From IMG/VR virus record IMGVR_UViG_2718218139_000006: a stretch of DNA of 16,353 bases. One strand, written 5' to 3'. Below are positions 2,637 through 16,353 of the stretch, piece after piece. Made by a program: the position numbers and the translations under genes. The DNA is from a virus. Taxonomy: Duplodnaviria > Heunggongvirae > Uroviricota > Caudoviricetes. The notes beneath the pieces were generated by a model. That model was not told the DNA's origin and ran no database searches. It saw only the letters and a program-made list of their open reading frames with translations. Position 1 is the stretch's first letter; the number at the start of each line of letters is the position of its first letter.

Positions 2637-2775
2637 TTGTCCTCCTCTTAGCTGCTGAGGGAGTTTGTGACCGATATATCTGACATGATATTAAGCTTAT
2701 GGCAGGTACATCTCTTGACTGGTCATAGAGATAAATTTAATGCTGAGAAATGCAGTATTGAATTTATCAATTTTT

Positions 2776-3015
2776 CTATTTCCTGCGTATGGCACGTAAC
2801 TTCTTAATGTGTTCTGCCGTTTCGATCTCTTCTGCTATCCGATCTGCATCAGCTTTATTCACAGGTTCAAAGTCATGATTAAAGCGGAACATGCTGGCGA
2901 TACATGTTCTGCCTTTTCGGATGTAGTGAACTTTGTTGTGGGTAGAACGCAGGATTTTGCAGGGAGTGCCGTGGTGATCGACGTACCAGGTGTTAGGAAA
3001 AATGATTCTGAACAT
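2776..3015 (-). CDS. Hypothetical small protein (79 aa) in the early-left operon position
   Basis: ATG ORF with a good Shine-Dalgarno (GAGGTG, 4-nt spacer before the ATG at 3015), co-oriented with xis/int. No family recognised. Confidence 0.5.
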   Translation of the reverse strand: MFRIIFPNTWYVDHHGTPCKILRSTHNKVHYIRKGRTCIASMFRFNHDFEPVNKADADRIAEEIETAEHIKKLRAIRRK

Positions 3016-3062
3016 TTTTACACCTCAATTGGACGATGTTGAAATTTGCTGCTTTGAGGCCA

Positions 3063-3281
3063 TCACAGTCCCCATTGTTTGTTCTTAAGTTCGATCTCCT
3101 CCTGGCAACTTGCACAAGTCCGACAACCCTGAACGGCCAGGCGTCTTCGTTCATCTATCGGATCGCCACACTCACAACAATGAGTGGCAGATATAGCCTG
3201 GTGGTTCAGGCGGCGCATTTTTATTGCTGTGTTGCGCTGTAATTCTTCAATTTCTGATGCTGAATCAATGATGTCTGCCAT
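3063..3281 (-). CDS. DksA/TraR-family C4 zinc-finger protein (phage TraR-like)
   Basis: 72 aa with CxxC-(17 aa)-CxxC (CECGDPIDERRRLAVQGCRTCASCQ) and size like TraR/lambda Orf73-type proteins. Same orientation as the xis/int operon. Confidence 0.65.
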   Translation of the reverse strand: MADIIDSASEIEELQRNTAIKMRRLNHQAISATHCCECGDPIDERRRLAVQGCRTCASCQEEIELKNKQWGL

Positions 3282-3330
3282 CTTTCATTAATCCCTGAAT
3301 TGTTGGTTAATACGCTTGAGGGTGAATGCG

Positions 3331-3356
3331 AATAATAAAAAAGGAGCCTGTAGCTC
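3331..3356 (-). terminator. Candidate intrinsic terminator on the minus strand
   Basis: Minus-strand hairpin GGAGC-TACAG-GCTCC followed by TTTTTTATTATT, just downstream of the 3380 stop. The stem is only 5 bp, so it is weak. Confidence 0.35.
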
Positions 3357-3379
3357 CATGATGATTTTGTTTTTCATGT

Positions 3380-3595
3380 TCACCGTTCCTTAAAGACGCC
3401 GTTTAACATGCCGATCGCCAGGCTTAAATGAGTCGGTGTGAATCCCATCAGCGTTACCGTTTCGCGGTGCTTCTTCAGTACGCTACGGCAAATGTCATCG
3501 ACGTTTTTATCCGGAAACTGCTGTCTGGCTTTTTTGATTTCATAATTAGCCTGACGGGCAATACTGCGAAGGGCGTTTTCTTGCTGAGGTGTCAT
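3380..3595 (-). CDS. Hypothetical small protein (71 aa from the ATG at 3595; an alternative upstream start at 3727 would give 115 aa)
   Basis: ORF MTPQQENALRSIARQANYEIKKARQQ... in early-left orientation, followed by the candidate terminator. Its 5' region overlaps the plus-strand Q-like ORF, so one of the two starts is probably wrong. Confidence 0.35.
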   Translation of the reverse strand: MTPQQENALRSIARQANYEIKKARQQFPDKNVDDICRSVLKKHRETVTLMGFTPTHLSLAIGMLNGVFKER

Positions 3596-4191
3596 TGAAC
3601 AAGTCCCATGTCGGCAAGCATACATACAAACGAAAGAAACCGCGCATTCTGGATGAAGTGACCGGCAGGTTAATAACGCTGGATAATCCGCCGATACCCG
3701 GTAAGCAGTCACGGGCGAAAGGCTCATCCATTGCCCTGGTCAGTCCGATCGAGTTCTCAACATCATCATGGCGCCGCGCGGTTCTGTCTCTCGAAGAACA
3801 TCAGAAAGCGTGGTTGCTGTGGAGTTACAGCGAAAGTGTTCGCTGGGAACATCAGGTCACCATAACGCAGTGGGCATGGAGCGAGTTTAAGACTCTGTTG
3901 GGTACCAGGAAAATTGCAGGTAAGACACTGGAACGTTTGAAGAAGTTGATCTGGCTGGCGGCACAGGATGTGAAGAACGAGCTGGCAGGGCGTAAGACCT
4001 ATGAATACCAGGAGTTGGCATCACTGGTGGGAGTGACATCAAAAAACTGGTCTGAGACATTTACTGAACGCTGGGTTGCAATGAAGCACATTTTTCTACA
4101 GCTTGATAGCCAAGCTTTATTGCTTTTAACGAAAACACGTTCAAAACAAAAGACCACATTTTCACAGCAAGATATTGCAAAACTGGATTAA
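3589..4191 (+). CDS. Putative late-gene regulator (Q-antiterminator-like by position), HTH-like segment near the C-terminus; start uncertain, possibly 5'-truncated
   Basis: 200-codon ORF immediately upstream of a terminator-rich leader and the lysis cassette, the canonical Q position. Contains an HTH-like stretch (YQELASLVGVTSKNWSETF). There is no in-frame ATG near the 5' end (only GTG/TTG candidates) and no recognised similarity to lambda Q. Confidence 0.35.
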   Translation: MSLNKSHVGKHTYKRKKPRILDEVTGRLITLDNPPIPGKQSRAKGSSIALVSPIEFSTSSWRRAVLSLEEHQKAWLLWSYSESVRWEHQVTITQWAWSEFKTLLGTRKIAGKTLERLKKLIWLAAQDVKNELAGRKTYEYQELASLVGVTSKNWSETFTERWVAMKHIFLQLDSQALLLLTKTRSKQKTTFSQQDIAKLD

Positions 4192-4260
4192 AAATCATAT
4201 ATTTTATGTAAATCTGATATTTTGCCAATGTTGTACGCACTGGCCGTAATCCAAATTCAA

Positions 4261-4296
4261 GCCCGAGGTTTAAAGCCTTGGGCTTTTCTGTTTCTG
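4261..4296 (+). terminator. Candidate intrinsic terminator / structured late-leader element
   Basis: Hairpin GCCCGAGG-tttaaag-CCTTGGGC (8 bp with one G-U pair) followed by a U-rich tract (ttttctgtttctg). Confidence 0.45.
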
Positions 4297-4372
4297 GGCG
4301 GTGAGTATCCTTCCAACGTACCCCAGCCAGGGTGTCTTCAGCTGTTGAGTTGATATTGCTTAACCCTCTGTT

Positions 4373-4398
4373 GCCAGCTACATGCTGGCTTTTTTATT
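4373..4398 (+). terminator. Candidate tR'-like intrinsic terminator between the Q-like gene and the lysis genes
   Basis: Hairpin GCCAGC-tacat-GCTGGC followed by TTTTTTATT. Confidence 0.55.
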
Positions 4399-4512
4399 CC
4401 AGGCTTGCGGGGAGCATCAACTCCGTGCTTTGTCGTTAAATTACCCCGTGAGCCTGATTTCTGACATTTAACGTCCCGGCCTTTTGTCGGCGGCGAAACA
4501 TTGGCTATTCAT

Positions 4513-4818
4513 ATGCACGAAAAAGAGAGCCTTGCCGGAGCGTTCTGGCTCGTTTTGCTGATCATCGCAGGTTGGGGCGGTCTGGTCCGCTACCTGATAG
4601 ATGTGAAGCAGAGTAAAGCAACGTGGAGCTGGATAAATGCTTTGGCTCAGATAGTGGTGTCGGGATTCACCGGTGTTATTGGTGGCCTGATCAGTATCGA
4701 AAGTGGATTCAGTATTTACATGATTCTCGCGACAGCGGGGATTAGTGGTGCGATGGGTTCGGTTGCACTGACATACTTCTGGGAACGACTGACAGGGGTG
4801 AAAAATGCAAAATCTTAA
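4513..4818 (+). CDS. Holin (not lambda S-like), about 101 aa from ATG 4513; the ORF track begins at TTG 4501
   Basis: Small protein with several hydrophobic transmembrane-like segments and a charged C-terminus, directly upstream of and overlapping the endolysin gene. Confidence 0.7.
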   Translation: MHEKESLAGAFWLVLLIIAGWGGLVRYLIDVKQSKATWSWINALAQIVVSGFTGVIGGLISIESGFSIYMILATAGISGAMGSVALTYFWERLTGVKNAKS

Positions 4819-5281
4819 TCCTCAGCGTAAAGCTTTCCTCGATATGGTGGCATGGTCAGAAGGAACGGATAACGGACGGCAGAAAACCAGAAATCATGGT
4901 TATGACGTCATTGTAGGCGGAGAGCTATTTACTGATTACTCCGATCACCCTCGCAAACTTGTCACGCTAAACCCCAAACTCAAATCAACAGCAGCCGGAC
5001 GTTATCAGCTTCTTTCACGCTGGTGGGATGCTTACCGTAAGCAGCTTGGCCTGAAAGACTTCTCCCCCAAAAGCCAGGACGCAGTGGCATTGCAGCAGAT
5101 TAAAGAACGTGGCGCTTTACCGATGATTGATCGCGGTGATATTCGTCAGGCAATTGACCGTTGCAGCAATATCTGGGCTTCACTGCCGGGCGCTGGTTAT
5201 GGTCAGTTCGAGCATAAGGCTGACAGCCTGATTGCAAAATTCAAAGAAGCTGGCGGAACGGTCAGAGAGATTGAGGTATGA
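4805..5281 (+). CDS. R: Endolysin R (lytic transglycosylase), lambda R homolog
   Basis: 158 aa; from residue 8 (QRKAFLDM...) onward matches lambda R as I recall it, while the first 7 residues differ. Confidence 0.9.
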
Positions 5282-5739
5282 GCAGAGTAACCGCGATTAT
5301 CTCCGCTCTGGTTATTTGCATCATCGTCTGCCTGTCTTGGGCTGTTAATCATTACCGTGATAACGCCATTACCTACAAGGCCCAGCGCGACAAAAATGCC
5401 AGAGAACTGAAGCTGGCGAACGCGGCAATTACTGACATGCAGATGCGTCAGCGTGATGTTGCTGCGCTCGATGCAAAATACACGAAGGAGTTAGCTGATG
5501 CTAAAGCTGAAAATGATGCTCTGCGTGATGATGTTGCCGCTGGTCGTCGTCGGTTGCACATCAAAGCAGTCTGTCAGTCAGTGCGTGAAGCCACCACCGC
5601 CTCCGGCGTGGATAATGCAGCCTCCCCCCGACTGGCAGACACCGCTGAACGGGATTATTTCACCCTCAGAGAGAGGCTGATCACTATGCAAAAACAACTG
5701 GAAGGAACCCAGAAGTATATTAATGAGCAGTGCAGATAG
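5278..5739 (+). CDS. Rz: Spanin inner-membrane subunit Rz
   Basis: 153 aa, [58 protein letters not shown]..., matching lambda Rz. ATGA start/stop overlap with R. Confidence 0.9.
5498..5680 (+). CDS. Rz1: Spanin outer-membrane lipoprotein subunit Rz1, embedded in the +1 frame of Rz
   Basis: 60 aa, [24 protein letters not shown]... with a lipobox (VVGC) and a proline-rich stretch, matching lambda Rz1. Confidence 0.85.
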
Positions 5740-5770: not shown

Positions 5771-6064
5771 TTATTGTGAGCAATACACACGCGCTTCCAG
5801 CGGAGTATAAATGCCTAAAGTAATAAAACCGAGCAATCCATTTACGAATGTTTGCTGGGTTTCTGTTTTAACAACATTTTCTGCGCCGCCACAAATTTTG
5901 GCTGCATCGACAGTTTTCTTCTGCCCAATTCCAGAGACGAAGAAATGGTGGGTGATGGTTTCCTTTGGTGTTACTGCTGCCGGTTTGTTTTGAACAGTAA
6001 ACGTCTGTTGGGCACATCCTGTAATAAGCAGGGCCAGCGCAGTAGCGAGTAGCATTTTTTTCAT
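5771..6064 (-). CDS. bor: Bor lipoprotein (serum-resistance-associated lysogenic conversion protein)
   Basis: 97 aa, MKKMLLATALALLITGCAQQ... with signal peptide and lipobox (LITGC); matches lambda Bor. Confidence 0.9.
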   Translation of the reverse strand: MKKMLLATALALLITGCAQQTFTVQNKPAAVTPKETITHHFFVSGIGQKKTVDAAKICGGAENVVKTETQQTFVNGLLGFITLGIYTPLEARVYCSQ

Positions 6065-12060: not shown

Positions 12061-12636
12061 ATGTCAGAGCAGAAAAAGACCTGGGCGGCTGAAGACCAGC
12101 TTCGCGGGAGCTGGATGGCAGGCCTGAAGTCCGGCTGGAGTGAGTGGGAAGAGAGCGCCACGGACTGTATGTTGCAGGTAAAAAGTGCAGCCACGCAGAC
12201 CTTTGATGGTATTGCACAGAATATGGCGGCGATGCTGACCGGCAGTGAACAGAACTGGCGTAGCTTCACCCGTTCCGTGCTGTCCATGATGACAGAAATT
12301 CTGCTTAAGCAGGCAATGGTGGGGATTGTCGGGAGTATCGGCAGCGCCATTGGCGGGGCTGTTGGTGGCGGCGCATCCGCGTCAGGCGGTATGGCTTACA
12401 GCCGTGTGTCGACTTTCTCCGGGGATTATCTCCGCGTAACTGACAACAAGGGGAAAACGCACGACGTGCTGACCGGAAGTGATGACGGTCGCCACAGCAA
12501 CACGTCTCTGGCGTGGGGAGCTGGCGTGCAGTTTAACCCGACCGAATCCGTGGCCATTGATATTGCTTATGAAGGCTCCGGCAGTGGCGACTGGCGCACT
12601 GACGGTTTCATCGTGGGTGTCGGTTATAAGTTCTGA
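12061..12636 (+). pseudogene. Chimeric ORF: internal C-terminal segment of tail tape-measure H fused in frame to the C-terminal about 80 residues of outer-membrane protein Lom
   Basis: First 110 residues (MSEQKKTWAAEDQLRG...GGAVGGGASASGG) match the C-terminal region of lambda gpH; the remainder (...SLAWGAGVQFNPTESVAIDIAYEGSGSGDWRTDGFIVGVGYKF) is the Lom/Ail-family C-terminus. Junction near 12388-12393. Confidence 0.8.
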
Positions 12637-15700: not shown

Positions 15701-15772
15701 GTTAACGCTGCTGGTAACGCGGAAAACACCGTCAAAAACATCGCATTTAACTATATTGTGAGGCTTGCATAA
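12701..15772 (+). CDS. stf: Side tail fibre protein Stf (about 1023 aa from ATG 12701), apparently full length
   Basis: N-terminus [17 protein letters not shown]...; long Ala/Ser/Thr-rich repetitive shaft; two copies of the tail-fibre repeat (G-I-[VI][11 protein letters not shown]...ATPKAVK); His-rich C-terminal tip with repeated HxH motifs ([46 protein letters not shown]), ending ...[11 protein letters not shown] as in lambda Stf / T4 gp37-type fibres. Confidence 0.9.
13080..14060 (+). repeat. Low-complexity GC-rich coding repeat region inside stf (Ala/Ser/Thr-rich shaft)
   Basis: Reiterated motifs such as AKTSETNA, SSASxASTxAxxA; this region generates long artefactual ORFs in the other five frames. 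Confidence 0.8.
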
Positions 15773-16353
15773 TGGCATTCAGAATGAGTGAACAACCACG
15801 GACCATAAAAATTTATAATCTGCTGGCCGGAACTAATGAATTTATTGGTGAAGGTGACGCATATATTCCGCCTCATACAGGTCTGCCAGCAAACAGTACC
15901 GATATTGCACCACCAGATATTCCTGCTGGCTTTGTGGCTGTTTTCAACAGTGATGAGGCATCGTGGCATCTCGTTGAAGACCATCGGGGTAAAACGGTTT
16001 ATGACGTAGCGTCAGGGGACGCGTTATTTATTTCTGAACTCGGTCCGTTACCGGAAAATGTTACCTGGTTATCGCCGGAAGGGGAGTTTCAGAAGTGGAA
16101 CGGCACAGCCTGGGTGAAAGATGCAGAAGCAGAAAAACTGTTCCGGATCCGGGAGGCGGAAGAAACAAAAAACAGCCTGATGCAGGTAGCCAGTGAGCAT
16201 ATTGCGCCACTTCAGGATGCTGTAGATCTGGAGATCGCAACGGAGGAAGAAAACTCGTTGCTGGAAGCCTGGAAGAAGTATCGGGTGTTGCTGAACCGTG
16301 TTGATACATCAACTGCACCTGATATTGAGTGGCCTGTAATACCAGAAGTTTAA
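15772..16353 (+). CDS. tfa: Tail fibre assembly protein Tfa (chaperone)
   Basis: 193 aa, [79 protein letters not shown]..., matching lambda Tfa. TAATG overlap with the stf stop. Confidence 0.9.

Follow-up and report, generated by a model that had tools for sequence, protein, structure and literature searches.

A predicted LydA-type holin gene joined to lambda-type R, Rz and Rz1 genes in a decayed lambda-like prophage

The lysis genes of phage lambda are arranged in the order S-R-Rz/Rz1, followed by bor, downstream of the late-gene antiterminator gene Q and a terminator-rich leader. The S holin, of 105-107 aa, has three hydrophobic segments, a basic C-terminal tail and a Met-Lys-Met dual start, and the ATG of the endolysin gene lies inside the 3' end of S with an overlap of 17 nt. 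A different holin, LydA of phage P1, is a member of Pfam family PF16083, for which the Pfam description is 'LydA holin phage, holin superfamily III'. LydA is controlled by LydB, a separate antiholin, and its gene is not linked to that of the P1 endolysin. LydA acts as a canonical holin able to release lambda R, since lysis requires it when lambda R takes the place of the P1 enzyme (PMC9025707); thus, a PF16083 holin can release R. Gene 13 of the Salmonella phages L, ST64T, ST160 and PS3, P22-like phages carrying a non-P22 holin, belongs to the same protein family as the holin described here, and in phage L the lysis mutation 13-am43 changes Gln50 of this homologous gene to an amber codon (PMC8022706).

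We have compared these systems with the lysis cassette of a decayed prophage that adjoins icd and is contained in a stretch of 16,353 nucleotides (IMG/VR record IMGVR_UViG_2718218139_000006), referred to throughout as the window. A preliminary description of this DNA had presented the cassette as a mosaic, and relative to lambda this is the case, as a holin of another family (PF16083) is joined to lambda-type R and Rz/Rz1, with all elements found where they had been placed (Table 1). The gene order through bor, downstream of Q and a terminator-rich leader, is that of lambda. The window holin, of 101-105 aa, resembles lambda S in having three hydrophobic segments and a basic C-terminal tail, and the endolysin ATG likewise lies inside the holin 3' end, although the overlap is 14 rather than 17 nt and the Met-Lys-Met dual start is absent. 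In contrast to Salmonella gene 13, which precedes a 132-aa peptidase-type endolysin, the window holin precedes R.

Close relatives are E. coli prophages encoding the RefSeq protein WP_000544528.1 and phage PhiR47_2 (PV340567), which have an identical holin protein and the same holin-R junction and share with the window the neighbouring genes Q, R, rzpD, bor, ybcV and ybcW. They differ from the window in that Q is full-length and in that the R allele diverges in a patch at 4876-4927. The cassette is very probably an ordinary lysis set of E. coli lambda-like prophages, already known and annotated, and its significance beyond correct annotation is small.

Table 1. Coordinates of the lysis genes and associated features in the window
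Feature	Positions	Strand	Basis or remark
Q late-gene antiterminator remnant	3621-4191	+	PF06323; ~40 N-terminal codons missing
Late-operon leader with terminator-like hairpins (4259-4285 and 4373-4389)	4259-4389	+	Terminator scan
Hairpin over the weakened ribosome-binding site	4472-4495	+	RNA fold; position as lambda sdi stem-loop
Optional 4-codon N-terminal extension, TTG GCT ATT CAT (M-A-I-H)	4501-4512	+	Degenerate form of the family upstream start
Holin gene, LydA / phage L gp13 type	4513-4818	+	101 aa from ATG; three predicted membrane helices
Endolysin R, lambda-type lytic transglycosylase, 158 aa	4805-5281	+	PDB 1am7; Glu19 present
Boundary of holin and R modules	4812-4821	+	Centred on stop codon 4816-4818, R codons 3-6
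R patch identical to lambda, 95 nt	4880-4974	+	Mismatch maps
Rz, inner-membrane spanin subunit	5278-5739	+	PF03245, E 2.6e-54
Rz1, outer-membrane lipoprotein spanin subunit	5498-5680	+	PF06085, E 2.9e-20
bor, serum-resistance lipoprotein gene	5771-6064	-	PF06291; placed as in lambda

Family and membrane character of the holin

TTG 4501 and ATG 4513 lie in the same frame and belong to a single ORF ending at the stop codon 4816-4818. The product matches PF16083 (Phage_holin_3_3) at 77.6 bits against a cut-off of 28.4 (E 8.2e-22), the match spanning 77 of the 78 profile positions, and PHROG 785 (phrog_785, 'holin') with an E value of 5.5e-40. Uncharged hydrophobic stretches are observed at residues 10-29, 40-66 and 68-94, in the numbering of the 105-aa form, with a basic loop after the first stretch and a basic C-terminal tail (E95, R96, K101, K104). 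Three helices are also present in a single-sequence AlphaFold model, which is of low confidence (pLDDT 66). The gene adjoins the endolysin gene in the late lysis cluster, downstream of Q and the leader. Public databases contain both the 101-aa and the 105-aa form, each on at least 1000 contigs, with names such as 'holin', 'gp13' and 'phage holin family protein'; WP_000544528.1 corresponds to the 101-aa form, the only one that RefSeq annotates. By profile, size, membrane segments and position in the lysis cluster, the window holin is thus assigned to the LydA-type family, and we infer its topology and hole formation.

Salmonella gene 13 specifies a protein of the same length with 73-74% amino-acid and ~76% nucleotide identity to the window holin, the phage L product being 74% identical, and shares the same 14-nt overlap containing ATGCAAA. 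A tblastn comparison of the window holin with a phage collection did not reach P1 LydA at E<=1e-3, and the link between the window and P1 is therefore made solely through the Pfam profile. An NCBIfam search returned no match for the holin, R, Rz or Rz1.

The holin had initially been described as bearing no resemblance to lambda S, and this view is upheld at each level of comparison. The window holin matched neither the lambda S family PF05106 in the Pfam search nor the NCBIfam model TIGR01594 (holin_lambda), which lambda S itself matches at 127 bits, and BLASTP against lambda S gave E=8.6. Megablast detected no nucleotide match to lambda upstream of 4822, a position corresponding to lambda 45510, the base that immediately follows the stop codon of S. 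Alignment of LydA-type and lambda-S-type holins by hhalign gave a probability of 2.8%, with profiles of six and two sequences, respectively, which are too shallow to decide whether the two belong together in a 'holin superfamily III', as the Pfam names imply. Combined with the PF16083 match and the three hydrophobic stretches, these results indicate that the window holin belongs to a family other than that of lambda S, with no detectable similarity between them.

The holin-endolysin junction and the patchwork of R

The position at which the holin module ends was mapped by anchoring loci on the endolysin ATG and comparing them base by base in 15-nt bins. The loci compared were those of Salmonella ST160, Klebsiella RAH1, Enterobacter L097, Yersinia L100 and Hafnia Meifeng. 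The endolysins behind holins of this family are of several kinds, peptidase M15-like in ST160, PF00959 lysozyme in RAH1 and L097, and GH19 in Meifeng. Holin genes preceding these other endolysins are identical to the window at 10-14 of 15 positions up to the bin ending at 4819, past which (from ~4819) the loci fall to random levels (0-8 of 15). The sequence AARAATGCAAA is common to the window and all LydA-type loci compared, and the endolysins accordingly begin with Met-Gln (MQTNKF, MQISNN, MQTSDK, MQTTNF, MQISDF). A GH108 enzyme is also found behind this holin type, but with a different overlap of 4 nt. From the other side, similarity to lambda R is observed from about 4817 and is solid from 4822, and in Enterobacter L098 and L102, as in lambda, R-family similarity begins within a few bases of the holin stop. 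With the holins alike to ~4819 and lambda R solid from 4822, the boundary is therefore placed at 4812-4821. The simplest position within this interval is the stop codon of the holin, which falls in R codon 5, close to the position of about 4815-4825 in the holin/endolysin overlap originally proposed.

By this comparison the holin and endolysin are exchangeable modules with a boundary at the holin stop codon, and the R start codon and the first two or three codons (ATG CAA A..) belong to the holin module and travel with its 3' end. The window R begins MQNLN, and not MVEIN as in lambda, because its first codons lie in the conserved 3' end of the holin gene. That lambda-like phages swap lysis genes as modules is a textbook point which this result illustrates; the detail added is that, for LydA-type holins, the unit of exchange ends at the holin stop codon. 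Endolysins of the R type, as well as those of three families unrelated to one another (PF00959 lysozyme, peptidase M15-like and GH19), therefore owe their Met-Gln start to the holin gene. In E. coli OkiPb01690 an R allele beginning MQTLNSQ, and thus sharing the MQxLNxQ pattern of the window R, lies behind a holin of the lambda family (PF05106) with no overlap, and its DNA resembles the window from the R ATG onward; this R looks as if it had kept a LydA-type holin tail after the upstream holin was replaced.

Another locus, from Erwinia tracheiphila (L103, 1470-2000), has a LydA-type holin followed by a 161-aa ORF (VSNLGRVRSK...NHINGVKDDNRAENLEW...) and no endolysin. By eye, this ORF resembles an HNH-type homing endonuclease that has entered the junction of holin and endolysin.

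The R protein matches PDB 1am7, lambda lysozyme, over residues 2-158 with an E value of 3.2e-102 and shares 151 of its 158 residues (96%) with lambda R, with S-E19-G conserved; Pfam has no family for R. The seven differences are at residues 2, 3, 4, 6, 15, 63 and 157. The preliminary description was therefore correct in calling R lambda-type, while the match that it had begun at residue 8 begins at residue 7, residues 1 and 5 matching as well. At the nucleotide level, where 439 of 477 positions are identical, the differences are unevenly distributed. Identity to lambda is ~77% in 4805-4879, with 17 mismatches in 4808-4879, and ~90% in 4975-5155, with 18 mismatches; thus, from 4805 to 5155 R is about 77-90% identical to lambda outside the lambda-identical patch. 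From ~5156 mismatches are rare and identity is ~99%. The first 75 nt of the window R match a common E. coli prophage allele. The O157-type allele has 15 differences from the window within the patch at 4880-4974, and its pattern of mismatches to lambda is reversed around 4876-4927. The 5' two-thirds of the gene represents an R allele other than that of lambda. The alternation of mismatch density along the gene argues that R is a patchwork produced by exchange among R alleles, and indicates several points of homologous exchange within this one gene.

The genes downstream of R are closer to lambda, and the earlier statement that Rz and Rz1 match those of lambda is confirmed, both proteins being identical to their lambda counterparts. 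Rz is identical at 458 of 462 nt, and Rz1, located wholly inside Rz in the +1 frame, at 183 of 183 nt; the PF03245 and PF06085 matches and the nesting are those of a two-component spanin of embedded architecture. bor is identical to lambda at 290 of 294 nt, with one residue altered in the Bor protein.

The pairing of this holin with R is widespread. Of 5426 complete E. coli genomes, 1004 cover at least 80% of the junction segment 4440-5000, O157:H7 strains among them, and in E. coli strain 2014C-3011 the segment is 100% identical. The holin is present on at least 588 IMG/VR contigs; of the 80 contigs examined, 78 encode the identical holin protein, and in all 80 the next gene is an R that begins MQNLN(P/L)Q (77 MQNLNPQ, 3 MQNLNLQ). 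The IMG/VR scan returned only near-identical copies, and diversity was drawn from 14 loci in species-representative genomes. The same pairing with both genes diverged was observed in Enterobacter intestinihominis (L098) and in L102, which has a 166-aa R-like enzyme. Phage PhiR47_2 carries the whole arrangement. In that phage (L001, 4606-5081) R is annotated as two CDS, with a 1-nt gap in a C run (GACTTCT-CCCCAAAAG) which may reflect either an error of sequencing or a true frameshift in the phage isolate.

These observations bear on whether the cassette arose recently, by illegitimate recombination between lambda itself and a foreign phage joined at 4815-4825. The near-identity of Rz, Rz1 and bor to lambda (~99-100%) and the abrupt onset of megablast similarity at 4822 are what such an event would leave, but the 17 mismatches in the first 75 nt of R and the return of near-identity to lambda only near 5156 are not. 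A recent hybrid would also place 4822-5155 inside the lambda clade and confine the junction to close relatives, both of which are already contradicted. The junction occurs in 1004 E. coli genomes with several R alleles, and L098 and L102 have it with co-diverged holin and R genes. We consider a recent origin from lambda highly improbable, and the earlier reading of the joint as a particular recombination with lambda is not sustained, given the prevalence of the junction, its diverged forms and the non-lambda 5' part of R. Judged from these comparisons, the holin-R pairing is old and common, and after it was established R was patched by homologous exchange with other R alleles. A caution follows for the placing of recombination joints, as lambda should not be taken as the implied parent.

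Start region and class of the holin

The upstream start of the holin family is ATG GCT AAA CGT (M-A-K-R), immediately before a second ATG, and Salmonella gene 13 keeps this ATG-Ala-Lys-Arg-ATG together with a GGAGG ribosome-binding site, neither of which is retained in the window, where the equivalent is TTG-Ala-Ile-His-ATG. The dual-start motifs of relatives are MAKRM, MAKHM, MKRM, MKMPKND and MRMPNKD, of which MKMPKND is nearly the MKMPEKHD of lambda, and a 'possible dual start motif' is already annotated in the GenBank entry for Serratia phage Eta. The window start region, TTG GCT ATT CAT ATG, is present in 79 of 80 IMG/VR copies, with GTG in the remaining copy. Ribosome-binding sites in relatives are of the GGAGG type, with predicted duplex energies of -9.5 to -12.2 kcal/mol, whereas the GGCGGCG of the window gives only -5.0 kcal/mol. 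ATG 4513 has no recognisable ribosome-binding site (-1.9 kcal/mol), and the true start of the holin is therefore uncertain.

A stem-loop over the ribosome-binding site is predicted in the window, in four relatives and in lambda, the fold being ambiguous in Yersinia L100. Leaders upstream of the holin align poorly among relatives, and the hairpin energies did not differ significantly from those of shuffled sequences (z -0.2 to -1.3; window z -0.17).

The lambda antiholin mechanism, from the work of Blasi and Young, depends on the extra positive charge of Lys2. The extension in the window contains neither Lys nor Arg, and a form initiated at TTG would therefore not act as an antiholin by that mechanism. 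Taken as two in-frame starts with one to three codons between them, Lys or Arg included, a lambda-type dual start is absent from the window. The preliminary description had raised, as speculation, a dual-start holin/antiholin pair; the idea fits the holin family, but not the window allele, with its TTG, its lack of a basic residue and its weak ribosome-binding site.

Two functional questions were weighed in this light. That the TTG 4501 and ATG 4513 starts yield a holin/antiholin pair working like lambda S107/S105 is unlikely. Relatives with a basic residue between the two Met codons and a strong ribosome-binding site inside a hairpin, including the Eta motif noted by its annotators, speak for such a pair, and in the window TTG is an allowed start codon in frame, the one diverged copy has undergone a start-to-start change to GTG and the hairpin is retained. 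However, the Met-Ala-Ile-His extension lacks both Lys and Arg, TTG replaces the first ATG, GGCGG replaces GGAGG (-5.0 versus about -10 kcal/mol) and RefSeq annotates the 101-aa form alone. A lambda-style pair in the window allele is thus not supported by its sequence. The E. coli allele has lost the features giving relatives a lambda-like dual start, and most likely a single functional holin species is made, at a low rate of translation. As conservation of the allele is extreme and a phage isolate, PhiR47_2, carries it, the unusual start region evidently works somehow. It is likewise improbable that the 105-aa product from TTG 4501 and the 101-aa product from ATG 4513 form a holin/antiholin or timing pair independent of the added positive charge of lambda S107, or, more modestly, that the gene is a natural, weakly translated, antiholin-less derivative of a dual-start holin in which timing is set by poor initiation alone. 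A degenerate dual start in a holin very common in E. coli and O157 prophages could interest those working on lysis timing.

The second question concerns the class of the holin. A pinholin-like or two-helix (class II) protein would only depolarise the membrane, opening no large holes, and in favour of this P1 LydA has been described with class II features, including two predicted membrane helices (PMC9025707). The window holin has three hydrophobic stretches and not two, however, and R, by inspection, has no hydrophobic N-terminal segment and neither a signal nor a membrane segment. R is 96% identical to the cytoplasmic lambda R and has neither a signal-anchor-release segment nor a signal peptide; lacking a secretion signal, it needs large holes to reach the cell wall. 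P1 LydA, moreover, supports lysis by lambda R (PMC9025707). A pinholin-like action is consequently very doubtful. In the mechanism we propose, the window holin, a small three-helix protein of the LydA / Salmonella phage L gp13 family, would build up in the inner membrane and form holes there at a set time, the soluble lambda-type transglycosylase R would pass through these holes to the cell wall, and the Rz/Rz1 spanin would then disrupt the outer membrane.

Prophage context and expression

The lysis genes themselves are intact, while the prophage that carries them is decayed. The Pfam match of Q covers profile positions 34-217 of 220, and homology to full-length O157 Q begins at 3621, equivalent to Q nucleotide 120. 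The same Q gene is marked as a pseudogene by RefSeq in strain 2014C-3011, in which the portal gene is also a pseudogene. The terminator scan detected 9 sites compared with 2.1 in shuffled sequences, and the two leader hairpins are strong, each having a G+C-rich stem with a T run behind it; the analogy to lambda pR'-tR' makes the leader at 4259-4389 the expected target of Q antitermination. As the prophage is decayed and its Q activator truncated, the cassette is probably silent in the window prophage unless a resident phage supplies a matching Q.

Around Q, a deletion joint at 3550-3621 removes the ~40 N-terminal codons, although a chimeric Q product of 200 aa could still be made from an in-frame GTG at 3589. 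A 115-aa ORF on the minus strand (3380-3727) had no Pfam match. The leader between Q and the holin contains a tRNA Gly gene in Klebsiella RAH1 (L003, 2352-2426) and tRNA Arg and Thr genes in Hafnia Meifeng (L008, 1100-1255); that of the window has terminator-like hairpins only, with no tRNA genes of this kind.

Elsewhere in the window, an IS3-family element at 941-2204, with transposase ORFs on the minus strand (1838-2140 and 984-1802) carrying HTH_Tnp_1 and rve domains, interrupts the prophage integrase gene. E. coli 2014C-3011, in which the prophage is otherwise 99.7% identical, lacks this element, and it also lacks a second segment, 2681-3413, which in the window contains small minus-strand ORFs matching DUF4222 (2776-3015) and a DksA/TraR zinc finger (3063-3281). 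Rfam returned nothing in or near the lysis cassette, its sole match being a full-length RF02111 (IS009) element far downstream (16115-16313, 227.9 bits), inside a tail-fibre-assembly ORF at 15772-16353. The ORF at 12061-12636 fuses the C-terminal domain of the lambda tape-measure protein to the C-terminal half of an Ail/Lom outer-membrane protein, which points to a large deletion of tail genes.
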